From positions 32,001 to 96,000 of the IMG/VR virus record IMGVR_UViG_3300010430_000004: a stretch of DNA of 64,000 nt; one strand, written 5' to 3'. Under the pieces are notes generated by a model that was not told the DNA's origin, made no database searches, and worked only from the letters and a program-made list of their open reading frames with translations. Both the position numbers and the translations under genes were made by a program. The stretch comes from a virus. Shown here in pieces: positions 13,178 through 47,700 of the stretch (position 1 is its first letter; every line of letters begins with the position of its first letter).

Positions 13178-13185
13178 CGATACTA
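13178..13185 (+). promoter_or_regulatory. Putative middle promoter box CGATACTA
   Basis: First rightward copy of YGATAYTA; further copies at 13587, 14909, 15091, 15600, 16121, 16746, 18695, 19426, 20526 and 29041. Confidence 0.6.
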
Positions 13186-13230
13186 AAGTAGTGGACCATG
13201 GAGTCCCCAACCCTCTTAAAAGGAGAACAC

Positions 13231-13581
13231 ATGAAAGCCAGTATCGAAGGTACTATCAGAAATAATGGTAAAACTACCAGCCTAATATTCAAACTCTTAT
13301 CAATGGCAATGGCCAACCCTGGAACCCCTCAAAACATATTTACTGAAAGTGACGTTTATGCGAGAAATAAGGGAATGTTGAATCATGCTAAAAGAATCAT
13401 AAATACCCTAAACCTAGACATAGAAGTAGATCTAGTCAAAACCAACGATCCTGACGGTCGCCTAGCACTAGTCATGACTTCACGGTACTATGGCAAGTTC
13501 CAAGCAGAAAGTGGAATGTTCGATATCAAAGGTTACATGGAAGATGGCAAGCCTATTCTTGGCAAGTTTACCAAGTTCTAA
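13231..13581 (+). CDS. Hypothetical protein with a degenerate P-loop (RNNGKTT)
   Basis: AGGAG RBS before MKASIEG. Confidence 0.6.
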   Translation: MKASIEGTIRNNGKTTSLIFKLLSMAMANPGTPQNIFTESDVYARNKGMLNHAKRIINTLNLDIEVDLVKTNDPDGRLALVMTSRYYGKFQAESGMFDIKGYMEDGKPILGKFTKF

Positions 13582-13600
13582 ATTCACGATACTAGTAAAC

Positions 13601-13767
13601 GCTGGGCAAACCATTTGTGCTCGACAGAGTATTGCTTTCGGCTAAATAGCGATAGATACGGAAAGCTCATAGAGGATAAGACCCTTGATTATTGAATAGT
13701 GTACTCTAATGGTCCCTTACGCATTATCTGTCTGTTCTGGATAGTGGTAATTACTGAGTAACCCAGC
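13601..13767 (+). ncRNA. Structured RNA element A
   Basis: Nested stems GCTGGG/CCCAGC, ACCATT/AGTGGT, GACAGA/TCTGTC, TATTGCT/AGCGATA, TAGAG/CTCTA; follows promoter box; ends in a T-run. Confidence 0.6.
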
Positions 13768-13785
13768 ACTTTTTTTGGAGAATAT

Positions 13786-13995
13786 ATGAGAACAAAAATA
13801 AAACATAAATTATTGTTAGAAGTTGAAATAGAGTGCCCTCTTGATAGTGATCACCCTGAACTTCATATAACAAAAGAAGAAGTTGCCGAATCATTGCTTG
13901 GTTCGGGTACTTATGCGGTTTGTGGAGACAATCCTAAAAAATATACAGCATTTATGTCTATCAAAAAAGTAACAGAAATAGATAAAGAATCATAA
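13786..13995 (+). CDS. Hypothetical protein
   Basis: 69 aa, GGAG RBS. Confidence 0.6.
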   Translation: MRTKIKHKLLLEVEIECPLDSDHPELHITKEEVAESLLGSGTYAVCGDNPKKYTAFMSIKKVTEIDKES

Positions 13996-14207
13996 TGGCT
14001 ATTAGAAAGCTGTTTAATTGGATGAATCAATACTACGTTCCAGGCTGTAGTGGAAAATGGAGCCATGATTGTCCTGTATGTAAAAAGCCAGATATGATGG
14101 GCACTGCTAGTTGGGACTATGATAAAAAGGATTATTACATAACTGAACATTGCAAATGTGGATATGTTTACCGAGGCATGAGAAAAGACAAGGATGATAA
14201 TGAGTAA
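13995..14207 (+). CDS. Small Cys-rich (Zn-ribbon-like) protein
   Basis: CPVC...HCKC. Confidence 0.6.
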   Translation: MAIRKLFNWMNQYYVPGCSGKWSHDCPVCKKPDMMGTASWDYDKKDYYITEHCKCGYVYRGMRKDKDDNE

Positions 14208-14433
14208 GCTTTCAGATATGATTAGAAAAGGTGAAAGATATGGCATTCAAGCCTGTAATCGTTGCGATTACCCTTCTCTGGTCAGAGCTAATACTTGTGC
14301 TGCTTGTGGATCATGGGATATTGAAGCCAACTTCTATGGAACTACTCAATACAAAAAGCATTTAGATGAAGATCCAATAGTGAGACAAAAAGCCAATGCC
14401 ATTAAATGGCTAAGAACTAGAACACTGAAATGA
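14194..14433 (+). CDS. Small Zn-ribbon protein
   Basis: CNRC...CAAC. Confidence 0.6.
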   Translation: MIMSKLSDMIRKGERYGIQACNRCDYPSLVRANTCAACGSWDIEANFYGTTQYKKHLDEDPIVRQKANAIKWLRTRTLK

Positions 14434-14485
14434 ATATTCATGGGCGTGGAGTCCATGAAACAATTAAACAACCGTGGAGGTTAAT

Positions 14486-14911
14486 ATGCAAGCAGATGAC
14501 GCTATCAAGTTATCAAACAAAGCCAAAGAATTATACGATAAAATACTAGATCTATCACTTGTAGATTTTTTGAAAAGAATAGATAAAGATGTTTCGTCCA
14601 ATGCAAATAGGGGTTTTACTAGTTGTATGGTTGATTTGTCTTTTTTGATAAATAATACTAGTATTCTTTTTGAAGCTCTCCAGCCGCTAAACAACCCTAG
14701 CGAGCGAGATGCTATTATGAATAAACTCAAAAAGAGAGTAAAAGACAAATTACCTGTAGGGTGGAGTAGCGATTTTCTAATGACTCCTGGATTTAGGAAA
14801 TTAAAGAAAAACCTGGAACAACACTACAAAGAGTCTGGATTTCAAGTATCTAATGATTATAACAATCCACATACCAAATTTTTAATTAAGTGGCAGAAAC
14901 AGGAACCTTGA
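14486..14911 (+). CDS. Hypothetical protein
   Basis: GGAGG RBS before MQADD. Confidence 0.6.
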   Translation: MQADDAIKLSNKAKELYDKILDLSLVDFLKRIDKDVSSNANRGFTSCMVDLSFLINNTSILFEALQPLNNPSERDAIMNKLKKRVKDKLPVGWSSDFLMTPGFRKLKKNLEQHYKESGFQVSNDYNNPHTKFLIKWQKQEP

Positions 14912-14920
14912 TATTTATCT

Positions 14921-15072
14921 TTGTAGTTGGGAGCTAAGTATCAACGCACTCCAAACCATACATTTTGAATATGTAGCTACTGTGTGTTGGTCGTTGAGAA
15001 GACCAGTGACCCATCTAAACAAAAGTCTCTCATGTACGGTTTGGTCCGTTTAATGATCCGTTTCAACGCACA
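14921..15072 (+). ncRNA. Structured RNA element B (rod-like with a central bubble)
   Basis: CCAAACCaTACAT (14951) pairs with ATGTAcGGTTTGG (15032); apical TGGTC/GACCA; terminal GTTG/CAAC; no ORF before the next promoter. Confidence 0.6.
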
Positions 15073-15101
15073 GGACGCATGGTTATTTTATGATATTAAA
15101 G

Positions 15102-15272
15102 AATTGAACATTGAAAGCGTGGGTCACTCAGGGTAGCTGACATAGTGACATCTGGCTGTCCACCTTTTTACGCCTGATGAGGATTACCGAAACATAGAAA
15201 TATGTCGCGTGGAGTCTCCCCAGGACAGGAATAACTGGAGACCTAGGCTACCCACTCTTTGAATGTTCAATT
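15102..15272 (+). ncRNA. Structured RNA element C carrying the hammerhead ribozyme
   Basis: 21/23-bp terminal inverted repeat (15102-15124 with 15250-15272). Confidence 0.75.
15166..15214 (+). ncRNA. Type I hammerhead ribozyme
   Basis: Stem I ACGC/GCGT; core CTGATGA (15174); stem II GG-atta-CC; GAAA; stem III CATA-gaaa-TATG; GTC cleavage triplet (cut after 15206). Confidence 0.85.
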
Positions 15273-15281
15273 AGAGGAATT

Positions 15282-15596
15282 ATGGATAAAGACTTTCTTG
15301 AACAGCTACAATTAATCATTTTTAATAAGGTTCGTCTAGAACCAGTAGGTTATACAGTCAAAATTTTGATGCCCTCTTCAATGTACGACCAGTGTATTGA
15401 CCATTTCACTGCACTGGGTATAAAACCGTATATAGGAAAATTGGAACTGTCTGGACAAAGCGGCCCCCATTATAGTTATGTAGTTTTGATAAATCCAGAC
15501 GCTGATGAAGTGGACCAACACGCAGTATCTGAAGCTGTAATGATTCCAGCTAAACTGGACGGTTTGGGTCCTATACTAGAATACGTCCATATCTAA
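15282..15596 (+). CDS. Hypothetical protein
   Basis: 104 aa, GAGGA RBS directly after element C. Confidence 0.65.
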   Translation: MDKDFLEQLQLIIFNKVRLEPVGYTVKILMPSSMYDQCIDHFTALGIKPYIGKLELSGQSGPHYSYVVLINPDADEVDQHAVSEAVMIPAKLDGLGPILEYVHI

Positions 15597-15613
15597 TTTC
15601 GATATTAATATTT

Positions 15614-15684
15614 ATTCAAGGCATCCTAGAGTCGCGATAGGATGGTGGGAGTAAACCGCACGAAAGGCCCACTTCACCTTGGAT
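15614..15684 (+). ncRNA. Structured RNA element D (three-way junction)
   Basis: ATTCAAGG/CCTTGGAT closing stem; CATCCTA/TAGGATG; GTGGG/CCCAC. Confidence 0.55.
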
Positions 15685-15697
15685 GTTTGGAGAATAT

Positions 15698-15901
15698 ATG
15701 ACAAAATATAAAAACATTTCTATTAGAATTCCAGCACATACAACCAACAATGGCAAAATCATAGGTTTATATTTTAATTTTCCTACCAAGTTTCATATAG
15801 AAAAAACAAAACTGCCATCTTCTACCAGATATATACTAGACCTAGCTATTCTTGGTTTTGGAATTTATATAAATATTGTCAGAGGTCTTGATGCCACATA
15901 A
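15698..15901 (+). CDS. Hypothetical protein
   Basis: GGAG RBS before MTKYK. Confidence 0.55.
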   Translation: MTKYKNISIRIPAHTTNNGKIIGLYFNFPTKFHIEKTKLPSSTRYILDLAILGFGIYINIVRGLDAT

Positions 15902-16136
15902 AAATTATACTTGTTGTGACAGGAATATTTGTGAATGTGGAGAAAAAGAACACCGTACTCATGGCAGTCAAAAAGTAAAAATTGACATTAGAGAAGCGAC
16001 TAAAAAAATTGAATTAGCTTTCCATATAGAACAAAAATACCCCCAATTATCTCTTATAGAAATTAACAGAATAGTGGCAGGAATCCTAAAAGGCAATGTT
16101 CAGCTTTTAGATAAAAAGTCTGATATTAAAAAATAA
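15891..16136 (+). CDS. Hypothetical Cys/His-rich protein
   Basis: MPHKNYTCCDRNICECG. Confidence 0.55.
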   Translation: MPHKNYTCCDRNICECGEKEHRTHGSQKVKIDIREATKKIELAFHIEQKYPQLSLIEINRIVAGILKGNVQLLDKKSDIKK

Positions 16137-16209
16137 GTAGTAACTCAAGAGTAGAGTGCCATACCGAAAGAAGTATGAGGTGTGTCAGGTGCGAGTCCGG
16201 CCTACTTAG
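16134..16209 (+). tRNA. tRNA-like element with an abnormal 8-nt anticodon loop (pseudo-tRNA or mimic)
   Basis: Acceptor TAAGTAG/CTACTTA; D-arm ACTC/GAGT; CATAC-cgaaagaa-GTATG; T-arm GTCaGG-TGCGAGT-CCGGC; no CCA. Confidence 0.65.
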
Positions 16210-16212
16210 ATG

Positions 16213-16354
16213 TTATCGTCGGGTGATTCAGAAATGAATCAAGGGAAGCAAGATAATCAGCTCAGTCTCTGTAGACACTAAACTCAGGGTTCTTGTAACA
16301 TCGTTTTAAATTTAACACCGAAACTAGTCCGGTGTAATTGACTAGCCCAGATAA
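16213..16354 (+). ncRNA. Structured RNA element F with an H-type pseudoknot
   Basis: TTATC/GATAA closing stem; GATTCA-gaaa-TGAATC; GCAAGA/TCTTGT; ACACCG/CGGTGT whose loop CTAGTC pairs with GACTAG. Confidence 0.6.
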
Positions 16355-16364
16355 GGAGAAAATT

Positions 16365-16745
16365 ATGGCAGCGCCATTTATAATCAAATATGGTATAGAT
16401 GATTCCAATGGAACTCTTGGAGTTATAGAAACTAAAAAATCCAGAAAAGGAAATTATTACGAAAGAATCAATATTGGTTCTGGATGGGAATATAATCACC
16501 ACTACGAAAAAGATAAGGTATTTATTAACGATGGTTATCAATATGCTTATGCTGCCATAGTTGATTGGCTTTTAGGCAGAGATGATGAAATAGTTTATGA
16601 TCTTGATCTTAACACTGCTCCACCATTTCTTAAGGTTGAAAAAAGTAGTTGTTTTGTATATATCTCAGTAATAGACTTTGATGGTTTTGATATTGATGAA
16701 TTTCACAAATGGACAGAAAACAAAGTAATGGTAAGAGTTTGGTAA
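16365..16745 (+). CDS. Hypothetical protein
   Basis: AAGGAG RBS before MAAPF. Confidence 0.65.
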   Translation: MAAPFIIKYGIDDSNGTLGVIETKKSRKGNYYERINIGSGWEYNHHYEKDKVFINDGYQYAYAAIVDWLLGRDDEIVYDLDLNTAPPFLKVEKSSCFVYISVIDFDGFDIDEFHKWTENKVMVRVW

Positions 16746-16759
16746 CGATATTAATAAAC

Positions 16760-16824
16760 GGATATGCAGTCCACCGCGTATGATGCGTAGCTGGTCTTCT
16801 TTAAAGAATCATACTCTTGCCAGC
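16760..16824 (+). ncRNA. Structured RNA element G (loop-loop pairing)
   Basis: Hairpin loop GTATGAT (16778) is complementary to ATCATAC (16808) inside the GCTGG/CCAGC stem. Confidence 0.5.
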
Positions 16825-16842
16825 GATTTTTTAGGAGAATTT

Positions 16843-17097
16843 ATGGAATTTTGGGTAACTCTTATTGGAGTACATAATTTACACGTAGATGGAGTAAAAG
16901 AAGCATTAGAAGCTAACTGTACTCATGTATTGAATGATTATTATATTTTTGAAGGTTCTCTTGAATATCTTGAAAATCATTACGGAGTAGAATTTTCTAG
17001 TCTTGGCGAAGGTGCGGTTCCATCTCTAGGAGATATGGATCAAGGTGCTCTTATTCATCTTTGCTTTGAAGTTTTTGGAATAGATGTGACTATATGA
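16843..17097 (+). CDS. Hypothetical protein
   Basis: AGGAG RBS before MEFWV. Confidence 0.6.
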   Translation: MEFWVTLIGVHNLHVDGVKEALEANCTHVLNDYYIFEGSLEYLENHYGVEFSSLGEGAVPSLGDMDQGALIHLCFEVFGIDVTI

Positions 17098-17209
17098 GTG
17101 CTTCCCTTTTTATTTTTATACTAGCAGTGATTGTACCACACGAAGCAGACACTATTGTTTGGTTTGCTTGGTTCATTTCACTTTTTATTGATTTTGAGTA
17201 GGAGAATTT

Positions 17210-17917
17210 ATGAACAGAAGAGATCTTTTAAAAACCGGAGCAGCACTTTCTGCCGTTGCATTTTTGCCTTTTTATAAAAGCAAAACAAAACCAAAGTGGG
17301 CAAAGGCTGATCATATTAAAACTTTAGATAGTTGTCTTTATCAGTATAATAAAAGAATAACCAAAGATCTTCCACCTGTTTATTACAAATGGGGAAAGAA
17401 ACTAAACGCATCAATAGATGCCAACACTACTACTTATATCAGGCAAATTTCTATAGAAATGGCAGCGCCCAATGTTACCAAACAAAATATCATAAATGAA
17501 ATTAAAGAAAAATGGAACGATGACTCTGCAATCTTAACTACTATTGGTGCAGAAGGGGCTTTTATCGATTTGGATACTGAAACCTTTAGAGCTCATAGAG
17601 ATATAGCTTCCCTTAAAAGATCCTTAAAACAAAACAGAGAATACGAAGATTCGAAAAGCATGACAGAATATAAGGAATGTATTATTGATAAAAATCCTCA
17701 GTATTCTAGAAAGTGGAGAGAATGGTACACTGAAAATAAAAGGCACATCCATGTATTGCCTGTGGGAGAAAAATCTATAATCAAAGAGTCTTATAAAACA
17801 AGCAATAGATTTTGTATAGACTCTTTTGCTAATCAAAACATTGCCGCCAGAGACAAGACTATTCAGGATATAAAAAATAAAGAAATTAACCCACTTTATT
17901 ATAGGTCCCTTATATGA
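17210..17917 (+). CDS. Hypothetical protein with a twin-arginine-like signal
   Basis: MNRRDLLK followed by a hydrophobic stretch. Confidence 0.6.
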   Translation: MNRRDLLKTGAALSAVAFLPFYKSKTKPKWAKADHIKTLDSCLYQYNKRITKDLPPVYYKWGKKLNASIDANTTTYIRQISIEMAAPNVTKQNIINEIKEKWNDDSAILTTIGAEGAFIDLDTETFRAHRDIASLKRSLKQNREYEDSKSMTEYKECIIDKNPQYSRKWREWYTENKRHIHVLPVGEKSIIKESYKTSNRFCIDSFANQNIAARDKTIQDIKNKEINPLYYRSLI

Positions 17918-18240
17918 AGAAAAGAAAAGCACCTAAAGTTATAGCTGGGGCTCGTGGGTTGTTTGTTAAAGACGGAGTGACTCATGGGTATGCTGTTGGT
18001 GTATCTGTGGTAGCTAACTATGCCAACATCTCTTTTGGTACCGTCAGGGTAGTAAAAGGTCTGGTAGAAAAGTTTACCGAACTCCAAGAATGCGAATTAC
18101 AAATCTTGGACCCTGCCACTAATGAAATAATACACAAATTAGACCTTAAAGATTATAAACCCTATATTACAGCTAATGATGGTTTATTTACTTGCCAAAT
18201 ACCGCTGAAGGTTGATAAGGAAAAAGATGAAGATAATTAA
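17914..18240 (+). CDS. Hypothetical protein
   Basis: 108 aa, ATGA overlap. Confidence 0.6.
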   Translation: MKKRKAPKVIAGARGLFVKDGVTHGYAVGVSVVANYANISFGTVRVVKGLVEKFTELQECELQILDPATNEIIHKLDLKDYKPYITANDGLFTCQIPLKVDKEKDEDN

Positions 18241-18703
18241 AGCGCCAGCAACATTAAAAATTGAAGGACCTTCTGTATTCCTTGCAGGAAGCATAGAAAT
18301 GGGCAACGCTGTTGATTGGCAAAGTTCCATTACAGACTCTATAGAAGAATCTGGATTGTTCTGCACAGTATTGAATCCTAGAAGGGAAGACTGGGATTCT
18401 TCATGGTTGCAGAGTATAGAAGATCCACAATTCAAACAACAAGTAAGTTGGGAATTAAATGCTTTGGAAAAAGCAAAAGTAGTAGCTATGTATTTCGCGC
18501 CAGGGACAAAGAGCCCTATATCTTTGCTTGAGTTGGGCCTATACGCTGAAAGTGGCAAAATGATAGTGTGCTGCCCTCACGGTTTTTGGAGAAAAGGAAA
18601 TGTAGACGTAGTGTGCGAAAGGTATGGAATTCCAGTTGTCGAAACGCTCGAAGAACTGGCCGATGATATAATTGCTGAATTAGAACATTACGCCCGATAT
18701 TAA
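18227..18703 (+). CDS. Nucleoside 2-deoxyribosyltransferase-like protein
   Basis: VFLAGSI...DWQ...LNPRR...QVSWEL...PISLLELG. Confidence 0.85.
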   Translation: MKIIKAPATLKIEGPSVFLAGSIEMGNAVDWQSSITDSIEESGLFCTVLNPRREDWDSSWLQSIEDPQFKQQVSWELNALEKAKVVAMYFAPGTKSPISLLELGLYAESGKMIVCCPHGFWRKGNVDVVCERYGIPVVETLEELADDIIAELEHYARY

Positions 18704-18712
18704 TATTTAATA

Positions 18713-18787
18713 TACCCTAAAGCCTGAGCTCAAGTGGCCAAATGCTGATGGAAAATCCCACAATCATTCAAATGCCCAATTAGGGTG
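18713..18787 (+). ncRNA. Structured leader/RNA element
   Basis: ACCCTAA/TTAGGGT closing stem after promoter box 18695, abutting the GGAGG RBS. Confidence 0.4.
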
Positions 18788-18796
18788 GAGGTTGCC

Positions 18797-19438
18797 ATGA
18801 GCAAAAAAATAGAAGAATTCAAATACAGTTTTATAGTAGATATCATTACTCTTAAAGAATTCATTGAGAGAGTAGAAATTAAAGAGTTTGATGATTTATT
18901 TTATGCGTATAATGCGCAAGTATCAACGCCAGATTTTTCTGCTTTTTTAGAAGATGTAAATGATTATCCAGAAGAAGAAACTCACTATAAAAAGAAAGTG
19001 ACCTCAATGGTTAAAGCTAATGAAGAAAAGCTTTTTCTTAATTATGTTCTTAACAATGGCGAACATAGCTTTAAATGGAAAGTACCTATACAAGATTTTT
19101 ATGAAGACTTGGGCATAGATCACATGATGAACTTTGGCATGGCAAAATGTATAGTAAAGCTTGGCGCTAGAAGATATATGGTTGCTGACCCCTGCGATTT
19201 TGCCAGACTTCATGGAAAAAGAGGAAAAGGAGTCGTTGCTTATCATCACAATAGGCTTCTTATTAGAGAAATGATGCCTATAACTGAAAAGGAAGCTATT
19301 CGTAGGGCTAAAAAAATTATAGGAAGAAAACCCACAAAAGAAATGATCAAAAATTTAGAAGCAGCAGGTGAGGTCATTGAAAAAGCAAATGAACTTGTCA
19401 AAAAAATAAAAATTTCCAAAAATGACGATACTAAATAA
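18797..19438 (+). CDS. Hypothetical protein
   Basis: GGAGG RBS before MSKKI. Confidence 0.65.
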   Translation: MSKKIEEFKYSFIVDIITLKEFIERVEIKEFDDLFYAYNAQVSTPDFSAFLEDVNDYPEEETHYKKKVTSMVKANEEKLFLNYVLNNGEHSFKWKVPIQDFYEDLGIDHMMNFGMAKCIVKLGARRYMVADPCDFARLHGKRGKGVVAYHHNRLLIREMMPITEKEAIRRAKKIIGRKPTKEMIKNLEAAGEVIEKANELVKKIKISKNDDTK

Positions 19439-19442
19439 GTAC

Positions 19443-19514
19443 ATCTATGCTATCTTACCCTGGAAAGGCGTATTGAATCATTCTGCGGATTCTGTAGGAA
19501 AGTAAGTCATAGAT
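19443..19514 (+). ncRNA. Structured RNA element H (multibranch)
   Basis: ATCTATG/CATAGAT, CTTAC/GTAAG, CCT-ggaa-AGG, GAATC/GATTC. Confidence 0.6.
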
Positions 19515-19530
19515 AGGGAGTAATTGCCCT

Positions 19531-19599
19531 GGAAAAGTAGTTTAATTGGTTAAAACCCCCTCGTTGAGGGGAATGTCGGTTCGAGTCCGGCCTTTTCCG
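19531..19599 (+). tRNA. tRNA-like element, nominal GTT (Asn) anticodon in a non-canonical arm
   Basis: Acceptor GGAAAAG/CTTTTCC; D-arm GTTT/AAAC; CCCCTC-GTT-GAGGGG; T-arm GTCGG-TTCGAGT-CCGGC; no CCA. Confidence 0.7.
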
Positions 19600-19617
19600 A
19601 TTTTTTTAGGAGAATTT

Positions 19618-19806
19618 ATGGAAAACATAGACAAATTATTTATATATTTCCTTATACAAACGTTCGTAGCGGCTGGAATTATGACTATATTTAAAGTTAT
19701 AGGCGTAGCACCAGAAAATTTAGATATGAATATGATATTTGCCATTGCTGTTGGAACAGGCGTGTTCTGGAGCGTTAAGTACCATCTTGGGCAAAATGGA
19801 AAATAA
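19618..19806 (+). CDS. Small two-TM membrane protein
   Basis: AGGAG RBS before MENID. Confidence 0.6.
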   Translation: MENIDKLFIYFLIQTFVAAGIMTIFKVIGVAPENLDMNMIFAIAVGTGVFWSVKYHLGQNGK

Positions 19807-19981
19807 AGAAAAGAAAAATAAAAGATCCAAATATATTGGAAGGTTTGATGCTCTATCTGACGAGTATTCAAAAGTAAACAGAAGAAGAAGCCGAACATTA
19901 ACAGCAGACAATACAAGTACCCAGGGTCAACACTATAATGGGCACACATCAACTTCTGGTGGAAAAATGAGCACAAAATGA
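19796..19981 (+). CDS. Small basic protein
   Basis: Start at MENKEK, overlaps both neighbours. Confidence 0.5.
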   Translation: MENKEKKNKRSKYIGRFDALSDEYSKVNRRRSRTLTADNTSTQGQHYNGHTSTSGGKMSTK

Positions 19982-20310
19982 ATATTAGGTTTAACCCAAA
20001 AGGTTTGACAGAATCTTTTTCGGTAATATCTGTAGATTTTAGAAAAGATTCACCTAGAAGTTTTTGTCCTCACATGGGAAAGGTAAACTGGTTCAATTTA
20101 TATATAACCAATATATTATCTATACAAGACATGGGAAAATATAGAGAAATAAAAACAGATACGAGTGCTTCTGGAAATAGCCCCTATAGGCATCTTGTAA
20201 CTATAGGAGTTGGAAAAATGGATTCTAATGGAAGGCTTATATTCTTTGCACAAAACTCCCTACAAGACCTGATAGAGCAGTTAAAAAATTCAGGAGCAGA
20301 ACTGTATTAA
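19978..20310 (+). CDS. Hypothetical protein
   Basis: 110 aa, ATGA overlap. Confidence 0.6.
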   Translation: MNIRFNPKGLTESFSVISVDFRKDSPRSFCPHMGKVNWFNLYITNILSIQDMGKYREIKTDTSASGNSPYRHLVTIGVGKMDSNGRLIFFAQNSLQDLIEQLKNSGAELY

Positions 20311-20320
20311 TCTTAAATAT

Positions 20321-20521
20321 ATGAAATTAAAGTATTTGTCTGATTTGAAAAAAAATCAAAAAATTACACAAGGCTTAGAGAATCCTCACCAGCCTAAAAA
20401 GAACAGCATGGGACACAAATCTGGTGGACAGATCCTTCGCTACGGTTCAGATATATTTGCTAAACCTAAATCTAAGGTACCAAATAGCAAAATCGCCAGC
20501 AGATCTAAAAAAGACTACTAA
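20321..20521 (+). CDS. Small basic protein, probably on a leaderless late mRNA
   Basis: AATCTTAA begins 12 nt before the ATG; no SD. Confidence 0.55.
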   Translation: MKLKYLSDLKKNQKITQGLENPHQPKKNSMGHKSGGQILRYGSDIFAKPKSKVPNSKIASRSKKDY

Positions 20522-20540
20522 CACCTGATATTAAATTTTG

Positions 20541-34267: not shown

Positions 34268-37200
34268 ATGGCAAAATCACCAGAAGTAAAATCTTTCGAA
34301 CAAATACTATCAGAGGCTCTAGCGTCTTATGAATCTAGACATGGTGCCAACGATAACAATATTGGTGGAGCTAAACTATCATTTTTAGAGTCTGTTGCCC
34401 AAATGGTATACAGAACTACAGGTGATACTTTTCAAATACTAAAAGATCGATCTGTTGACAGAGCTAAAGGCGAAGCCCTTAAGGATATTGCACTAGAAGA
34501 AAAAGTATCAATTTTATCAGCAACCCCAGCAACTGGACCAGTTACTATTATTGATACATCTTTTGATAAAATAGCTACAAAAATATATGCAGGATCTATT
34601 GCTCAAAATTTGCCTAATGTTGGCAAGCTTTTTGTTGAAGTTTCCGATGCTTCTCTGTTTCCTACTGCTGGTTCAATTTATATTGGCAGAGGGCTAAATA
34701 CAGTTGAAGGTCCTATTGCTTATAGTTCAACCACTCAAGTAGGTGGATATTGGAGAATCAACTTAGATGCTCCACTTACAAAGTACCACAATATCTCTGA
34801 GCCTGTAATCCTTTCCCAAGGTGGAACAAGAACAGTGCCAGCTGGTACTGTAGTGTCAGCCCCTGCTGTTGGTGCCTCTGACGATATACTTTTCTCAGTT
34901 ACAGAAAACGTTACTCTTCTTGATGGAGAAAACCAAATAACAAATGTTAAAGTTGTTTCACAAAAGACTGGTGTAAAGAATAATGTACCTAAAGGTGCTA
35001 TTACCTCTTTTCCTTCTGAGCCTTTTGCTGGAGCTTCCGTACTTAATGAAATTAAATTTGATACCGCTAGAAACACCGAAAGAGATGAATCTCTAAGAGC
35101 AAGAATTAAACAATCAAGACTTTCCAAAGGTCTTGGTACACCAATAGCCATTAAAAACGCTACTCGTGGAGCTAAAGCTACCGATGAGTCTGCTACCGTT
35201 ACCTCAAACGAAATGGTCACTGGTGATGTTGACAAAACTGTTTTATTCATTGACAATGGAGAAGCATACGAAGAGAAAAGCACAGGTGTTGGGCTTGAGA
35301 TAATCGTAGAATCAGCCCTGGGTGGAGAAGATAGTTTCCAACTTTCAACTGGTGGAAGGCAGACTCAAGTAGCTAAAGCATTTATTGAAACCACTCTTTC
35401 GTCTCCTTTTGCTATTAATGGTGGAGATGTACTAGCTGTATTAGTTGGTGGAGTTGCTTATGAACACGCTTTTAAGGCTACTGATTTTGTAAGTGAAGGC
35501 GCAGCAACGGCTTTTGAAGTTGTAGCTTCTATAAACGCTAATTCAGCTATTGAATTTCAAGGCACCACTTCTGAAGATGGAGAAAAAGTAGTTCTTCAAG
35601 CCAAGGAAGAAGATGATGAATATATTCAAATAACAACGCCATCAAACGTTATCGCTGGCAATGCTGGTGACACTATGGGTTTTCCGATTAATGAAATCGA
35701 AACCATTAGAATTTATAAAAACAACAAACCATTAAACAAAAATGGGCGTTCAGCTGTTTTAAGAACAGAAAACCAAATAGATTGGTCAAATGCCATTGCC
35801 AATGGTGATACTCTTGTTTTATCTATTGATGGAACTCCAGAGCAAACTTATACTTTTACTGATGCAGATTTTATAGCCGAAGGAAGTCACACTACTGCAT
35901 CATCGACCAATACCCTAGCTTCTTGGATTAGCGTCATCAATGACAAAGTAACAGGTATAACAGCTGAAGTAGATGGAACACAGATAAAAATCACGAGTAA
36001 TCTTGGTGCAAAAACAAGAGCGGCAATTTCAATTAACCCTACATCTACTCTTGTAACCAAAGGTATGTTTACTACTAACCAAGGTTTAATATCTCAGGGC
36101 CTTGAAGCTGATTTTAAAATTTCTAGAAATACTTCTCAATTAAAATTATTTACACCATTAGATCCTGGAGACAGACTAACTGCTGGTTCTAGTTTTACCA
36201 ATGGAAATGTAGAAAGCAATCCTATTCTAGGTGGAACCCTTTCTTTTCCTACAGATGCTAGTATTTGGGTTAATTTTGATGATCCAGATTCTGCTGTGAT
36301 TAAAACTGGTTTAATTGCTGGCACACAAATGAATGTTACAAAAGAAGCAGGAAATGTTTTACGTTTCGAATCAACTACAGCTGGTGTTTTTGCTAATGTT
36401 GAAGTTGGAGATTACGTTATAATTTGGTCTGAAGAATTTGCCGCGACTAACAGGGGCGAATTTGTTGTTACAGCTAAAACTTCTGATTACTTAGATTTTA
36501 AAGTTACTTCTCTTGAATATGCCCTTGCTGCCGTTGAAGCTCTTGTTTCTTATAGTGAAGGTATTGTTGTTTTAAGATCTAAAGAAGTGCCTCAAAAATT
36601 TACAATAAGTGCTGGTGTTAAAAATATCAATACCGTAGCTGAAGAATTAAACAACCAATTTACTATGGGCGAAGTGCTGGTAGACAATGATGAAATTTTA
36701 ATTTTTGTTACAAATACAAAAGGCTCGCAGGGCTCTGTTCATATAGTTACTTTTGATTCTGCTGGTAAAAATTTAAACTTTGTTGAGGATACTTTAGATG
36801 CTAGTATCATTTCACAAATTGCTAGTTATGACAATCAAACTCTAGAAGGTTCGTTTCCTTTGTTCATACATGGTAAATTTACTTCTGAAGATGCTGCTTA
36901 TCCACCAAATGACTATATTGATACCATTGATATTGACACAGATATTACTGCTCAAGATCCAAATAATTTGGTAAATATACTAAGTCCTTATAATACAATT
37001 AATGATGTTCTAGGCGAAGACGAGCACACACAAATTAAAACTCAAAGTGCAACTACACTTACTGTTGAGCAAAATGCTCTTATTAAAAGAATCAGAACAG
37101 AAGATAGATATGCAATATTGAGCCCACTTAATTTTGGTTTTGAAGACGAGGTTGTTGCTGTTCTTGATGAAGATGCTTCAAATAGATCCTTTAAGATCCC

Positions 37201-40200
37201 AATGACTAGAACTATAACTACAAATACTACTGCAACTTTAAGTTCTAATACATTTAATGCCTACGACACAGACAATGGACCTACCGCTTCTTTGGAAGAT
37301 AGCTTTGGATCTTTGTTTAATTTTTCTAACTATAAAGCCTTGATGCAAGCCAAAAATGTACTAGATCCATCTGGTGATGAAAACTCTATATTATATAAAT
37401 CAGTTATATGGGGTGCTGGTGGAGAAAAATATAAAATAGGTTACACTTATCCTACTGCTCCTAACGCTCCAATTTTAAGTACAGTTGTGGTTAGAGACGA
37501 AGTAGATATTAAAATTTCTATAAAATCAGGAAATTCAGTCACCACTTCTATTGATGGCACTACTGAGTGGAATGTATCTATAACACCAAATACCCCTGTA
37601 GCTGGTACTGACCAAGTCACATATACATATACTGGTACTGGTACTGCTCCAAATCTCGCACCTCTTACTGGTGGAGAATATGTTAATATAAAAGAAACTT
37701 CAGGATTTAATGTTTTAAATAAAGGCATATTCAGAGTTTCAGATGAAGTTGGTTTTACTCCAACTGCTACATCTTTTAGTATAGTCAGAGCAAATGGGGA
37801 AGCTATAGCAGAAACAGACGCACCTACTCTTGTAGCAGCTGCTATTGTTTTTTATCTGTCTGACACTACCACTGCTCTTGAAGTGAAAGACTATATTGAT
37901 GCTAACCTTTCAGACTATATAGCTGCTACACTATTAGACGATAACGGAACCTCTGGCGCTGGTGAAATAAACAGAAGCACATACGAAGAAAGTGGCTTTA
38001 CTTTTTCTGAAGTTTATTTACTCGATGGTGTTAACTGGGTCTTAATGAATGATCTTTCATCTTCTCCTCAGTTTACTTTTAAAAGAAATCTCAACTTTAT
38101 TTCTGGCGGAGGCTATGCCTTTAATGATGGAGAAGTTGTAAAATTAATACCTACTACTTTTAGCCAGCTAAATGAGTTTTTAAATACACTATCTGTAACA
38201 GGTTTCTCAACACTTGGAACTGTTAAGCTTACAAATAGAGACGAGGCCCTTGAGCTTGGAACCCAAGTACTCGGTTCAGCTGGTGCGATACAGATAATTG
38301 GTGGATCAGGAAATAAAGTTGTTTCTCCTGTAATCAATCAATCAGTAGAAATCGATAATCAATATATAAAAACTTCTCTAGGGGCAGCTGCTACTTCAGG
38401 TATTAACCCTGATCAGTGGGTCAAGCTTGTCGCTCTAGACAATCAAAACAAGATTACAAATTTCTCAAATGTAAATAGAATAAAAATAACCCCAAATACA
38501 CCAACAGCTAATAAATCACTTATCCAAATAAGCAACTCCCAAGATGGAGAAAGACATTTTGGTGCTCCAAGAAGATTCGTAAGAGATCGTGGAAGAACTT
38601 TTAAGGTTGAATTCCAAGGTAGTCTTGTTTGTATTAGCCATGACGGTATATCTGCCAGTCCAGCTTTTCAAAAAGAAGTAGAGCTAAACGATGCTGCTGG
38701 TGGAACTATTAGTGTATTTCGTGGAATAAACAGCAATCTAGCTACCTATGTTATTGAGAGTGGTCTGGCCACCTTTAAAGCAATGGATCATGGTGACTTC
38801 CTAACAGTTTCTGGTTTATCTGATTCAGAAAATAACGGCACTTTCAAAGTAATCCAAATATCTTCTGATGGCTTAACTGCCACTGTAAGAAACCCAGATG
38901 CTGTAAATAGTCTTCCAGATGCTACTATAACTATTACAAATAACGCTAATATAACCAGTGATACTTTTTCTGTCAATGGAACTTCTCTAGTAGAAGGTGT
39001 AGACTTTGCTGCTGGAGTTGATGATGAAGCTACTGCTGCAAATCTTGCAGCTGCTATAGCAGTTATTGTAGGGGTTACAGCTGTAGCTGATACAAATATA
39101 ATTACTGTTACTTCTGATACTCAAGGTGTAATAGTTCCTATTTCTTATACAGATAGTGGAAGTGGAGTTGCTGCTACAGTTTCTGATCCTCAACTTACTG
39201 GTGAAACTTTTGCAGATGCTAATCTAGTAGGAAATGCTGAAATTAGAGAAGGCGACACCGTTATTTTTGGTTCACCTTTTAATATTCTTAATCAGGGAAG
39301 ACATAGAGTTATCAGAACCTATAATGATTCTATTTATATAGAAAATGATAAAGCCGTTGAAGAAATGGTTGATATCGTAGACAATTTAATTTCAACTGGT
39401 GCTGATGCGACTACTGAATACGATGTTTTAAATAATAATGAATTTATGAGAATCCAATGGACTGGTACAGGCACAGAGCCTGATTTAGGCTTGCTTAAAG
39501 TTGGAGATATATTAACTATCGGTACTGATTTTAATGCAGCAAACCAAGGCGAATTTGCCATTGTAAAACCTAAATCTGCTCAATCAGAAATAACTAGAGT
39601 TACAACTGTCCCATCGACAGAAATAACTACAGGAACTCACTTTTTGCTAAATAATGCTGGTGATGTAATAGAATATTACGTTTGGTATAATAAAAATGGC
39701 GGCGGTGGAGACCCAGGTTTGGCCGGAAAAACTGGAGTCGAAGTTGCTATTACTCTTGTTGACACTGACGAAGAAATTGCCACTAAGACAAAAAATCTTT
39801 TGGATCCTCTTGGTGATTTTACTGTTGGGTTACAGTCAAACGTACTTACAATAACTACTGTTGGTAAAAACTTTACCACAAATTCAGCCGATGGTGATAT
39901 TGGTGGAAACTTTTTAGTTGAAACATTACAAGAAGGCAATGTTACCTATGTTGACTTAATTAATCCAGGGTTTGCCACTGAAACTGGAATCACTGTAAGT
40001 GATGTTTTTGAAACCCATCGCCCATCGTTTAAAGTTTACGAATACGAAGCTTCTGTTGAAAATGACGTATTCAGTATTGCTTCTGATTATTTCAATGAAA
40101 ATAACATTGGAACATGGACCATTGAAGAAGTTCTTGACCGTGATACTATAATTGTTTCTGGAAATATGACTGCTTTAGATGAAACACCACTGTTAAGCAA

Positions 40201-40828
40201 TGAAGAAGCTATTTTTGTAGAAGAAGGTGTTAAATATACTGGTTACAAATTCATACATACCATGGGTATCGATCCTGGAAATAGCACTTTAATGAATCTT
40301 ATATTTGACAGCCAAGATCAAGTAGAAAAAATAAACAATATTGGTGTTGTTTCGGCAAATACTATTAATAAACTTAATTTTGAAACAGCCATTAAAAATG
40401 GTCTAGATAGTTACAGATTTTCAACTGGTTTAATAGCAGAAACAAACAGAATAGTTTACGGTGATCCTAGAGATAACCAAACATATCCTGGAGTTGCTGC
40501 TGCTGGTGCTGAGATTTTCATTAATGGACCTCTTGTTAAAAAGATTCAAGTGTCAGTTGACATTAGAGTTAAAACAGGTATTCCATTTACTTCAATAGCA
40601 GAACAAGCTAGAAACGCTATTTCTGCTCTTGTAAACTCTAACGACATAGGAAAAGCTATTGCAATTTCGGATATAGTTGGTGTTGTTAGGCAAATACCTG
40701 GAGTGTTGTCTATAGCTATAAGTAGCCCACAGTATGACCCAGCTAATGATATCATTGCTGTTCAGCCTGCTGAGAAAACACTAATACTAGATGATATTAA
40801 TGATATCATTGTAAGCGAAATTGGATAA
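34268..40828 (+). CDS. Giant baseplate J/gp6-like wedge protein
   Basis: J motifs at both ends (ERDESLRARI...KGLGT; IAISDIVGVVRQIPGV) with a very large internal insertion. Confidence 0.8.
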   Translation: MAKSPEVKSFEQILSEALASYESRHGANDNNIGGAKLSFLESVAQMVYRTTGDTFQILKDRSVDRAKGEALKDIALEEKVSILSATPATGPVTIIDTSFDKIATKIYAGSIAQNLPNVGKLFVEVSDASLFPTAGSIYIGRGLNTVEGPIAYSSTTQVGGYWRINLDAPLTKYHNISEPVILSQGGTRTVPAGTVVSAPAVGASDDILFSVTENVTLLDGENQITNVKVVSQKTGVKNNVPKGAITSFPSEPFAGASVLNEIKFDTARNTERDESLRARIKQSRLSKGLGTPIAIKNATRGAKATDESATVTSNEMVTGDVDKTVLFIDNGEAYEEKSTGVGLEIIVESALGGEDSFQLSTGGRQTQVAKAFIETTLSSPFAINGGDVLAVLVGGVAYEHAFKATDFVSEGAATAFEVVASINANSAIEFQGTTSEDGEKVVLQAKEEDDEYIQITTPSNVIAGNAGDTMGFPINEIETIRIYKNNKPLNKNGRSAVLRTENQIDWSNAIANGDTLVLSIDGTPEQTYTFTDADFIAEGSHTTASSTNTLASWISVINDKVTGITAEVDGTQIKITSNLGAKTRAAISINPTSTLVTKGMFTTNQGLISQGLEADFKISRNTSQLKLFTPLDPGDRLTAGSSFTNGNVESNPILGGTLSFPTDASIWVNFDDPDSAVIKTGLIAGTQMNVTKEAGNVLRFESTTAGVFANVEVGDYVIIWSEEFAATNRGEFVVTAKTSDYLDFKVTSLEYALAAVEALVSYSEGIVVLRSKEVPQKFTISAGVKNINTVAEELNNQFTMGEVLVDNDEILIFVTNTKGSQGSVHIVTFDSAGKNLNFVEDTLDASIISQIASYDNQTLEGSFPLFIHGKFTSEDAAYPPNDYIDTIDIDTDITAQDPNNLVNILSPYNTINDVLGEDEHTQIKTQSATTLTVEQNALIKRIRTEDRYAILSPLNFGFEDEVVAVLDEDASNRSFKIPMTRTITTNTTATLSSNTFNAYDTDNGPTASLEDSFGSLFNFSNYKALMQAKNVLDPSGDENSILYKSVIWGAGGEKYKIGYTYPTAPNAPILSTVVVRDEVDIKISIKSGNSVTTSIDGTTEWNVSITPNTPVAGTDQVTYTYTGTGTAPNLAPLTGGEYVNIKETSGFNVLNKGIFRVSDEVGFTPTATSFSIVRANGEAIAETDAPTLVAAAIVFYLSDTTTALEVKDYIDANLSDYIAATLLDDNGTSGAGEINRSTYEESGFTFSEVYLLDGVNWVLMNDLSSSPQFTFKRNLNFISGGGYAFNDGEVVKLIPTTFSQLNEFLNTLSVTGFSTLGTVKLTNRDEALELGTQVLGSAGAIQIIGGSGNKVVSPVINQSVEIDNQYIKTSLGAAATSGINPDQWVKLVALDNQNKITNFSNVNRIKITPNTPTANKSLIQISNSQDGERHFGAPRRFVRDRGRTFKVEFQGSLVCISHDGISASPAFQKEVELNDAAGGTISVFRGINSNLATYVIESGLATFKAMDHGDFLTVSGLSDSENNGTFKVIQISSDGLTATVRNPDAVNSLPDATITITNNANITSDTFSVNGTSLVEGVDFAAGVDDEATAANLAAAIAVIVGVTAVADTNIITVTSDTQGVIVPISYTDSGSGVAATVSDPQLTGETFADANLVGNAEIREGDTVIFGSPFNILNQGRHRVIRTYNDSIYIENDKAVEEMVDIVDNLISTGADATTEYDVLNNNEFMRIQWTGTGTEPDLGLLKVGDILTIGTDFNAANQGEFAIVKPKSAQSEITRVTTVPSTEITTGTHFLLNNAGDVIEYYVWYNKNGGGGDPGLAGKTGVEVAITLVDTDEEIATKTKNLLDPLGDFTVGLQSNVLTITTVGKNFTTNSADGDIGGNFLVETLQEGNVTYVDLINPGFATETGITVSDVFETHRPSFKVYEYEASVENDVFSIASDYFNENNIGTWTIEEVLDRDTIIVSGNMTALDETPLLSNEEAIFVEEGVKYTGYKFIHTMGIDPGNSTLMNLIFDSQDQVEKINNIGVVSANTINKLNFETAIKNGLDSYRFSTGLIAETNRIVYGDPRDNQTYPGVAAAGAEIFINGPLVKKIQVSVDIRVKTGIPFTSIAEQARNAISALVNSNDIGKAIAISDIVGVVRQIPGVLSIAISSPQYDPANDIIAVQPAEKTLILDDINDIIVSEIG

Positions 40829-44740: not shown

Positions 44741-47700
44741 ATGTCAGTTAAACGTAGAGTAAATTTTGTAAACCAGATGCGTGTCGATGTTCCAGCTATG
44801 AAATCGATAGAATCTGGAATTAGTAATGATTTCGATGAGTTACTCAACGCTCTTGTAACTGGAGAAAATAATAGTTACGTTATTAGAGGTTTTAACGTAA
44901 ATATGACAGGAGCTATAGGCTCTGCTGCATCGGGTCTTCAGATGCTTGTTGAAGATTCTGCTATTCTTCACGGCTCTTCAAATGAGTCCGGTACATTTTT
45001 TGTAGTCCCTTCTGGAACTGCACCGCAAATTCTCAATTCTGTAACAAATACACGAGTAATCGGATCTTTTACTCCAGGCGCTCAAAACTATATAAGTCTC
45101 GAATTTGTTAGACAAGTAGATGACACTACTACTGGTCAAGTATATATATGGAATCCTGCCAATAAAAACGAAACAACTAAAACTATTCCTTTAGCAATTA
45201 CAATGGATTACAACCTAGTAATTGGAACTACCCAGCCAGCCAGCAATTCGTTGCCTATGGCTCTAGTTACTACTGATCTTAGCAATAACGTTGTAGACAT
45301 TACAAACATCAAACCAAACCTTTTAGGTCTTGGCCGTGGTGGAGCTTCCCCTGATCCCACATATTCTTATCCTTGGACAGATGGAAGAGAACCAAATGCT
45401 CTAACTTCTAGCAATTCCCTAATTGACCCATTTAAAGGTGGAGATCTTCAGCTTCAAAACTTGAAAGAGTGGATGGATGCTGTTATGTCTCGTTTCAAGG
45501 AAATCTTTGGAACACCATACTGGACTAGTGCAAATGCTTCAGGATCATTGGCCTCTCTTAGGCAAGATCTAGCAAATACCATTTTTACTGGCCGTGGAAC
45601 AGTTACCCATAGTGACACTGTTGCTGGACAAATTAACTGGTCAAATGATCTAAGTGCCGTGGTTATTGGTTCAGACATTAAATATGTTATTACTGCCAAT
45701 CCTGCCACTACAGATATTACTCTTGCCGATAATGATGTTGCTTATATTACTCTCGTAAGAGATGAAGACATTACACCAAATCTTATCTTTACCAATGCCA
45801 GCCAAGTAGTTACTTCTGTTGGTGCTATCCCATGGACAAGTGGTTTACAAGCCGGAGATTTTGTCAAAACTGCAACTGCTTCAGCTGCTCTATATTATGA
45901 AATTTTAACCGTTGACTCCCCTACCCAAGTAACTTTGGTTGAGGCTTATGCTGAAACTGATACTGGAGCTGTTGGGGTTCAATCACAATACGCTTTTGGT
46001 GGATATGAAACCAATCCCTCTCCATCTACTGATAGACATATAAAAGTTGCCCAAAGAGACCAAGTTCCTTTTGGTGAAAATATTTACTGGGTACTTTTAA
46101 GACAAGACAATGGTGGAAGTGTACCTAGAGTTTATGCTCGTTTTATTGGAAAAGAATTAGAGCAAGGTGAAACTCAAGACATTAACGATGGAACGCCTCA
46201 AGCAGTCCTAGATTATATTGGCTCATTCAGCGAATCTGATTCTGGACCAGACTATGGTCAAGCATATACGCCTCTAGTTGCTGAAGTAAGCACTATCACA
46301 GCTGTAGCAGCTTCTGACATTACTAGTGGGCAAAGATTTTCATTAAATGCTTCAAACGACATTGAACAATACTATGGTTGGTTTAACAAAGATGCTGCTG
46401 GTGGAGACCCTACACCTTCAGGTTTAACTGGTATTGAAATTCCAGTAACTACAGGTGACAACCAATTAGTTGTTGCTGCTGCCATTCAAGCTGCTGTTGA
46501 TGCTATTTCTGATTTTAATGCTGTAGATAATTTAAACGGTACAGTTACAATTACCAACGATGATGCTGGTGCTACAACTAATGCTGCAAACGTTGATGTT
46601 GGTGGAGCTTTTGCTATCGCTATTGATGTTGAAGGTACTGGAGATAGAAACAGATACGTTATTGACGAAGAAAATTTAACCAAAGGAATCAAAACTCTAG
46701 ACAAAGCTCTTGGTTTACTTCAAGATGCTATTGACGATTTGCCCTGGAAAGGCACTGCTATCAACTTTGCTGCCCTTCCTAGTAGTGGTAACTCTGATGG
46801 TGATGTTAGACTTGTATTAGATACTCGTGTTGCATATCACTGGGATGCTTCACAAAGCCTTTGGCTGCCACTTACAGGTGGATCTGGCCTCAAATTAATT
46901 GGCGGTGGAACAGTTTCATTAACTAAAGTTAAAGAACTTGTTGGTACAATAGAGCAGTTAGTTAACACTGCCAGCATTAATAATCCTAATCAAAATAACT
47001 TTACCGCTCAAACATTTACCCCTGCTGTAGACACTACTGTTAGTGCTGTTGAGCTTTTATTCTGGGGAGCTGGTTCAGCTCCTGTTGGAACAGTTACTTG
47101 TGAAATTTGGGGCACTGATGGTTCTTCTGAACCAGATGAAACAAATATTTTAGCTACTTCTACTCCGTTAGATGTAACTGGTATTCCTGATTTTGTAGAT
47201 GATATTAGACAATTTACCCTTACTGCACCAATCACGTTAACTGCTGGAACAACTTATGCTATAGTTTCTAACACAGACAATATGACTGGTGGATTTATTA
47301 GATATAGAGGATCTACTGCAAATCCTTATGCTGGTGGATCGGTCTTTGCTCAATCAAGTCCCCCAACTGGTGCTTGGTCAAACCCAGGCGGTGGAGCTTA
47401 CGATCTTTGGTTTAGAATCTTAGAAGAGCAAGATGCTCAAGAAGTTATTTATAACTCACCTAATGCTTCTCCTGATCAGTTTTTTGCTCCAAATAATAAC
47501 TATAGAATGGGTCAGAACTTTATTCCACCTGAAAGTGGAAATTTAACATCTGCTTCTTTATTTTTAGCAGGATCAGGTTTCTCAGGTTCAGGATCGATAA
47601 AAGCAGAATTATATGACACAAGTGGAAACAATCCAAATACTCTTATAGCTACTTCTACTAATACTGTAGATCCAACTACTCTTCCTAGTCACCCATCTGC

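Follow-up and report, generated by a model that had tools for sequence, protein, structure and literature searches.

A predicted hammerhead ribozyme set in a loop of a conserved double-pseudoknot RNA of phages

The window, by which we mean the whole 64,000-nucleotide stretch of virus DNA that was analysed, carries a 171-nt element (positions 15102-15272, plus strand, as are all window features described below) that contains one complete type I hammerhead. Judged by sequence comparison, this hammerhead sits as an insert in loop L1 of a scaffold with two pseudoknots, and the scaffold is autonomous, because it also exists in hammerhead-less and in circularly permuted forms. The hammerhead class has long been known; what we have not found described is the scaffold and its composite with the hammerhead, which is absent from Rfam 15 and from the full-text literature searched. 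A divergent cluster of hammerheads, with 152 loci that fall below Rfam thresholds, is described in a preprint (10.64898/2026.10.21.760802), and this cluster may or may not be the family of the window element. The field still asks what the thousands of hammerheads in bacteria and phages are for, and in the present family the ribozyme is tied to a strongly conserved partner structure. We lean towards reading the element, of which this phage has a single copy, as a constitutive, self-maturing cassette of a widespread phage RNA that would process the transcript and remodel its 5′ end.

The hammerhead of the window element

The hammerhead occupies positions 15170-15210, within loop L1 of the scaffold, and an 8-nt joiner separates it from the 5′ strand of scaffold helix Pb (CUGUCC, 15156-15161). 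Its stem I comprises 4 bp (ACGC 15170-73 with GCGU 15207-10). The core segment CUGAUGA (15174-15180) is followed by stem II and its loop (15181-88), in which the 2 bp GG/CC enclose the loop AUUA, then by the core segment GAAA (15189-15192) and by the stem III hairpin (15192-15205), whose 5 bp are formed by ACAUA-GAAA-UAUGU. C15206 takes the place of C17, and cleavage is predicted 3′ of this nucleotide, between 15206 and 15207. The conserved type I core positions are all matched, including the A15192-U15205 pair and C15206, and the three helices around the core, with stems II and III capped and stem I open, are backed by compensatory changes in the family. All the parts from which the initial annotation had deduced a perfect catalytic core with a cut after 15206 can be found in the sequence. 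Its observation of a minimal stem II is correct as to the 2 bp, but such a stem is ordinary, since it recurs in the family and is common among natural hammerheads (Perreault et al., 2011, PMC3088659).

By its core, the element belongs to the same class as the type I hammerheads of bacteria and phages (RF00163; PMC3088659). It differs from them in that its short stem I continues into the conserved scaffold with its two pseudoknots and not into a simple helix, in that no contact between loop II and stem I is evident, the family showing no conserved partner for one, and in that the Rfam hammerhead models do not see it. Loop II is varied within the family (AUUA, GAAA, GUAACGC and others), and stem II ranges from 2 to about 9 bp; it has 2 bp in the window element and in member L122, and opens with an A-A mismatch in 12 others. 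Five members (L136, L142, L151, L169 and L126) have GUAACGC as their loop II; the ACGC of this loop is complementary to the invariant 5′ GCGU block, and pairing between the two might give these members a tertiary pseudoknot specific to their subgroup.

When searched against Rfam 15, the window element matched neither a hammerhead nor any other family, either at the gathering thresholds or at E ≤ 10; 10 family loci searched at gathering matched no hammerhead or other family, and one hammerhead-less member matched no family. HDV-family models gave no match at E ≤ 10 on either the window element or the hammerhead-less member. The search with hammerhead covariance models that the initial annotation had proposed thus finds no hammerhead even at E 10, which we attribute to the architecture of the element (short stems, and a scaffold in stem I) and not to its core. 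A covariance model built in leave-one-out fashion from 20 relatives, with the window sequence excluded, aligns with the element over its full length (1-156) at 123.4 bits and E 4.5e-31, and detects no second copy in the 168.5-kb phage genome. BLAST of positions 14400-16000 against 50,697 phage records produced no match. The 191-nt region that holds the element folds with z = -3.2, and the fold of the 175 nt upstream of it (14918-15092) is not significant (z = -0.58).

The silence of the Rfam models, together with the abundance of the loose motif CUGAUGA..GAAA..GUH (six occurrences in the window as compared with 1.5 expected, and hence not rare), could suggest a chance resemblance or a dead relic without activity. 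We regard this explanation as extremely improbable. The full hammerhead descriptor, which demands the core, a stem II of at least 2, a stem III of at least 4 and a stem I of at least 4 Watson-Crick pairs, is matched at a single site in the 168.5-kb genome and nowhere in 200 Markov-simulated genomes. The explanation is also contradicted by the family. Stems II and III are too variable in length to align, and the hammerheads were therefore counted anchored on the core, giving 32 distinct examples; the core segment reads CUGAUGA in 24 of these, CUGACGA in six, and CUGAAGA and CCGAUGA in one each. H17 is C in all 32, the pairs 15.1-16.1 and 15.2-16.2 are invariant, and positions 2-4 of stem II and 3-5 of stem III display between three and five types of Watson-Crick pair. 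A core that was not conserved in homologs had been named at the outset, together with a lack of cleavage under any condition, as evidence against the ribozyme; what the 32 relatives reveal is a conserved core flanked by covarying stems II and III.

Pairings of the double-pseudoknot scaffold

The scaffold, about 100 nt in length, combines a hairpin, Pa, whose loop pairs with the 3′ end to form helix X1, with an H-type pseudoknot made up of Pb and Pc. The block GCGUGGG (15117-15123) marks its 5′ edge and is invariant in alignments A2, A3 and A5. Pa (15123-28 with 15144-49) is paired in 100% of cells, with five of its six pairs changed on both sides in A2, and in 98.8% among hammerhead-less members. 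The Pa loop bears the 5′ strand of X1, GGGUAGC(U) (GGGUAGCU, 15131-15138), which pairs with the 3′ strand (G)GCUACCC (GGCUACCC, 15246-15253). Changes on both sides are found in all seven X1 pairs, which are among the top pairs by mutual information. Downstream of Pa, the invariant joiner CAUCUGG (15149-15155) precedes the 5′ strand of Pb, whose partner is GGACAG (15223-15228); this helix is 98.6% paired, with six of six pairs changed on both sides, and 100% paired where the hammerhead is lacking. Pc crosses Pb and is formed by GUCUCC (15214-15219) and GGAGAC (15237-15242, the start having been corrected to 15237). It is 99.3% paired, with three pairs changed on both sides and the others invariant, and contains the pair that ranks first by mutual information, 15217-15239.

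Two further invariant segments complete the fold. The block GCGYGGAGU, here GCGUGGAGU (15207-15215), includes the 3′ strand of stem I and is retained in hammerhead-less members, and the A-rich loop L3, GAAUAACUG (15229-15237), is invariant in all alignments. In the terms used for H-type pseudoknots, Pb represents stem 1, Pc stem 2 and GAAUAACU loop 3, with the hammerhead residing in loop 1. A lone covarying pair, 15155-15220, which is G-C in 38 sequences and U-A in seven in a 46-sequence mutual-information scan, connects the CAUCUGG joiner with the 3-nt loop between Pc and Pb, and probably represents a tertiary contact.

For the covariation test we used alignment A2, which comprises 23 sequences. 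Within its scaffold helices, 93.7% of cells are paired, as compared with 70.7% in shuffles and 35-48% when the partners are slid, and 22 of 31 pairs have changed on both sides. None of 500 shuffles matches A2 in the percentage of paired cells, in the number of pairs changed on both sides or in the covariation score. In stem I, the distal pair alternates between A-U (11 A2 sequences) and G-C (eight). The unbiased mutual-information scan, carried out on the 46-sequence model-based alignment, returns the same scaffold helices as its top pairs. The window element possesses the invariant blocks GCGUGGG, CAUCUGG, GCGYGGAGU and GAAUAACUG in family order, and Pa, X1, Pb and Pc can all form in it with the crossing topology of the family; about 30 scaffold nucleotides are invariant, most of them unpaired. 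The crossing of CUGUCC/GGACAG by GUCUCC/GGAGAC that had been pointed out in the initial annotation is therefore a true conserved pseudoknot with compensatory changes.

Two other arrangements were considered and rejected. Pairing of the Y of GCGY with the Pa loop is hinted at by mutual information, but at least six loci break the correlation, which is probably a subfamily signal. An HDV-like fold (P1-P2-P3-P1′-P4-P2′, with P1 starting at the cleavage site) was set aside because the strand order of the covarying helices differs.

The scaffold of the window element is enclosed by an outer closing helix in which 15102-15124 pairs with 15250-15272 (duplex energy -27.3 kcal/mol). This helix had been described as a 23-bp stem; it does span 23 positions on each arm, but two are mismatched, leaving 21 bp. 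Its inner 4-5 bp overlap the conserved Pa and X1, the first 4 nt of the 3′ arm being shared with the 3′ strand of X1, and in the consensus fold its length is about 17-18 bp. GGGTAGC and GCTACCC, which had been proposed to pair in competition with the outer stem, do pair, and form the conserved X1 pseudoknot; the supposed competition corresponds to an overlap, 4 nt long in the window copy, where the two helices adjoin, and this overlap ranges from 0 to 4 nt in the family and is not conserved among members.

These alternatives bear on a further proposal of the initial annotation, namely that the ribozyme is regulated, as an allosteric or switchable hammerhead whose scaffold would sense a ligand, a protein or temperature while alternative pairings toggle cleavage. 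In keeping with such a device, the conserved scaffold, which resembles a pocket, grips the 4-bp stem I directly, nucleotides 15250-53 of the window copy can pair either within X1 or with 15121-24, and ACGC 15170-73 is in principle pairable with GCGU at 15117-20 or at 15207-10. However, the overlap between the outer helix and X1 varies from member to member, and the alternative partners are invariant, so that covariation cannot support the alternative pairings. Moreover, loci without a ribozyme and sites between tRNAs, which offer nothing to regulate, have kept the scaffold. The glmS ribozyme, the c-di-GMP-dependent group I intron and aptazymes all join a structured domain to a catalytic core. 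The window element resembles these composites in coupling a conserved structured domain to such a core, as allostery would require, but differs from them in that its scaffold stands alone at many loci and that no conserved alternative pairing was found. We know of no natural ligand-controlled hammerhead, and because the analysis yielded no positive support for regulation, we consider it improbable.

Natural forms of the family

Pattern scans, three over IMG/VR and one over bacterial genomes, uncovered about 60 distinct loci in IMG/VR records, prophages and genomes. A pattern for the 3′ half of the scaffold (GUCGCGNGGAGU..GAAUAACUG) identified 49 IMG/VR loci, and a second pattern, which describes the scaffold with only a short middle part, added 26 further IMG/VR loci. 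The hammerhead pattern, when applied to bacteria, was found in six genomes or MAGs, from Burkholderia, Lysobacter, Mycobacterium, Acinetobacter, Pseudomonas and Planctomycetota. The scaffold is present in prophages of Proteobacteria, Actinobacteria and Planctomycetota, and many unrelated phages carry it.

Fourteen distinct loci have the whole scaffold without a hammerhead, with all four helices kept. In these, all that separates the 5′ strand of Pb from the invariant GCGYGGAGU is a spacer of 2-4 nt or a plain hairpin, and Pa, X1, Pb and Pc are 86-100% paired, with many pair types. Since the scaffold exists without the ribozyme, it is more than an accessory through which the hammerhead is regulated. 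Three other loci have an intact scaffold combined with a degenerate core, which reads CUUGAUAA in L125:13039-13191 (-), CUGAUUA in L167:6309-6467 (+) and CCGAUGA in L142:3548-3702 (+). From their sequences, these members look like cases of ribozyme decay in which the knot has been retained, and their cores indicate that cleavage is not kept in every member.

A circularly permuted design occurs in enterobacterial prophages. Here, a loop caps the outer helix and the RNA ends lie in loop 1, where a new terminal helix closes them, and the hammerhead comes first, 5′ of the scaffold. Once rotated, the permuted sequence is collinear with the window element, and in the permuted and the standard designs the predicted cut frees a 5′-OH on the same G of GCGYGGAGU. 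The three natural designs, with the ribozyme inside, in front or absent, constitute ready-made natural controls.

Pseudoknots have been described in other hammerheads, in which they tie loop I or stem I to loop II or to the tail and serve solely to fold the ribozyme (PMC3088659). The likeness of these pseudoknot-stabilised hammerheads to the window element consists in the presence of pseudoknots beside the ribozyme, whereas both pseudoknots of the present family lie within a scaffold and are fully conserved also where there is no hammerhead. The view that the element is something other than a simple processing site is borne out to this extent, in that a real hammerhead is embedded in a larger fold.

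Genomic setting, predicted products and function

The complete 168.5-kb IMG/VR virus record of which the window is a part has few recognisable genes, and the nearest named phage, Myxococcus phage Mx1, shows 28% identity over one protein only. Immediately 3′ of the element lies a ribosome-binding site, GAGGAA (15274-15279), followed by the start codon of an orphan open reading frame (ORF) of 104 aa (15282-15596). This ORF and its neighbours have no Pfam or PHROG families, and a search for relatives of ORF 15282 in IMG/VR produced one spurious weak match, which has no element upstream. The outer stem does end at the ribosome-binding site of this ORF, as had been noted initially, but the arrangement is local and not a family trait; at 62 loci, the distance from the element to the next ORF reveals no consistent coupling to a ribosome-binding site. 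The window copy unites the 2-bp stem II, the long closing helix that ends at the ribosome-binding site and a candidate phage promoter motif directly upstream.

This motif, UGAUAUUA (15091-15098), is situated 3 nt upstream of the element and is a copy of YGATAYTA, of which the window holds 21 copies where 10 are expected. Nine plus-strand copies fall in gaps between small ORFs from 13178 to 20533, and YGATAYTA(A) is present in nearly every gap of this kind on that strand (for example, at 13587, 15091, 15600, 16121, 16746, 18695, 19426 and 20526), as well as just before a tRNA-like gene. By its sequence and distribution, YGATAYTA(A) resembles a phage-specific promoter with a -10 element only, or else a processing signal. 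If UGAUAUUA is a promoter, then the 5′ end of the RNA would be expected near 15105-15108, inside the outer helix. The window's only tRNA-like gene (19530-19600, plus strand) scores 48 bits with the Rfam tRNA model; ARAGORN calls it tRNA-???, with an abnormal anticodon loop.

The permuted cassette is located between the gene for the Q antiterminator and that for a lambda-family holin (L131:10452-10672 (+), and L203:2501-2731 in the prophage of E. coli CFSAN061763). Of 5,426 complete E. coli genomes, 15 contain the whole cassette, which is annotated in none of the 15, and in one E. coli prophage it lies about 50 nt downstream of a predicted 11/12 sigma-70-like promoter. Phage lambda has just the 35-nt 3′ flank of the cassette. 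A position at the head of a lambdoid late operon and, in the window, upstream of a plus-strand structural block of about 49 kb would suit an RNA of the put type, which would act on RNA polymerase during transcription and cause processive antitermination at the head of long operons. We give this possibility only a slim chance, given that many copies lie in tRNA clusters or elsewhere, that self-cleavage would sever the tether to the polymerase and that the element has no similarity to the known antiterminator RNAs in Rfam. The structural block of the window includes two giant ORFs of 2,186 and 2,798 aa (34268-40828 and 44741-53137, plus strand), and the large proteins of this phage are mostly without PHROG matches.

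By analogy with established hammerhead chemistry, the transcribed ribozyme would cut 3′ of C15206, leaving a 2′,3′-cyclic phosphate on the 5′ piece and a 5′-OH on G15207. By computation, the two predicted products are connected by 38 intermolecular base pairs, and a nested cofold of the halves in which the pseudoknots are uncounted yields a ddG of -18.8 kcal/mol; besides the outer helix, the duplex energies are -11.5 kcal/mol for X1, -8.0 for Pb and -7.2 for stem I. From these values the halves should remain together after the cut, in agreement with what had been anticipated in the initial annotation. Its alternative suggestion of a two-piece RNA likewise gains credibility from the paired halves, and from the natural permuted form, which is the same knot with its break at the same place.

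A clamped product geometry would favour religation mediated by the hammerhead itself. The geometry of the paired halves and the existence of circular permutants could accordingly be taken to indicate a cleave-and-religate cycle or a circular RNA, with the ends rejoined by an RNA ligase or by the reverse reaction of the ribozyme. Each element has a single cleavage site, however, and no RtcB or Rnl-type RNA ligase was found in the 168.5-kb phage genome, which makes this route very unlikely.

In the constitutive processing reading that we prefer, stem I, Pb, X1 and the outer helix would keep the two pieces firmly joined, and the resulting nicked, compact knot would serve as a structured 5′-OH end of the ORF 15282 mRNA, covalently cut off from the promoter-proximal triphosphate end. 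The ribozyme would act to open loop L1 or to trim the leader of an autonomous scaffold, and in the prophage design the same knot would become the 5′ end of the late mRNA. It is these two predicted mRNA ends that lead us to favour a constitutive cassette for 5′-end remodelling. RiboJ-type insulators similarly employ hammerhead self-cleavage in a 5′ leader, RiboJ being synthetic and devoid of a knot; the resemblance lies in a predicted self-cut that leaves a structured 5′-OH end just upstream of a ribosome-binding site. Approximately 40% of family members are found in tRNA clusters and not in mRNA leaders, and thus a 5′-leader role cannot be the whole story.

A tRNA on the same strand lies within 1.5 kb of 23 of the 57 distinct family elements. 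At eight loci the element is separated by 0-4 nt from the tRNA that follows, and at four by 0-1 nt from the one that precedes. Clear closing helices, whose sequences are unrelated, enclose about 18 of 42 members; where a tRNA gene abuts directly, such helices are missing. This pattern resembles the RNase III processing stalks of rRNA; in such stalks, which are found in T7 early mRNA as well, the flanks pair into a long helix around a folded RNA, as do those of the window element in its 21-bp helix.

These observations bring in the main rival to the constitutive cassette, which is that the scaffold is a free small RNA acting in trans, putatively as a binder or decoy for a protein of the host or the phage, a small-molecule aptamer or a new ribozyme, with any effects on neighbouring mRNAs being incidental. 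Its release would be the work of RNase III, cutting at the outer helix, or, in tRNA clusters, of RNase P and the tRNA-processing enzymes, and the hammerhead would be one of several ways to free or nick the scaffold. That hammerhead-less scaffolds fill tRNA-sized slots at the closely abutting loci is consistent with this possibility, as are the distribution of the closing helices, present without an abutting tRNA and absent with one, and the roughly 30 invariant, mostly unpaired nucleotides, which are typical of a binding or catalytic pocket. However, no conserved neighbouring gene was found, and the permuted prophage and window copies are located right behind promoter-like sites at the head of operons, where a role in cis fits equally well. 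We therefore view the trans-acting RNA as quite possible, yet doubtful.

Another class of self-cleaving RNA associated with phage tRNA genes is the HDV-like theta ribozyme, which occurs in tailed phages, often abuts tRNA genes and has been proposed to process transcripts (Kienbeck et al., 2024, PMC10879173). The present family shares with it the character of a small, here putatively self-cleaving RNA with two pseudoknots that resides in tailed phages and often next to tRNA genes. In contrast to theta ribozymes, X1 starts inside the Pa loop, Pb and Pc form a separate H-type knot, and the predicted cleavage is internal and carried out by a hammerhead, whereas theta ribozymes cleave at the 5′ end of the element.

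The scaffold might also represent a new functional RNA class, whether a ribozyme, an aptamer, or a nuclease-blocking or protein-binding knot, that becomes active once loop L1 is opened at GCGYGGAGU by the hammerhead. The built-in ribozyme would open L1 from inside the loop in the window element and from the 5′ end in the permuted prophage form. We advance this proposal tentatively and consider it rather unlikely. If it is true, the family would show a ribozyme that, in nature, converts a second structured RNA into a mature form made of two pieces, and bacterial and phage hammerheads would gain a defined task. Because the permuted version resides in the late-operon leader of lambdoid E. coli prophages, the question of what these hammerheads do can be tested in a standard genetic system.

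One virus contig (marine or other) contains both a member of the family and a separate, canonical hammerhead. The latter (L055:5300-5362 (-)) is a type II hammerhead that matches Rfam RF02276 at 47.7 bits. The family member (L055:4873-5053 (-)) lies about 250 nt downstream of it and has an extra hairpin in loop L1, and both are situated in a tRNA cluster.
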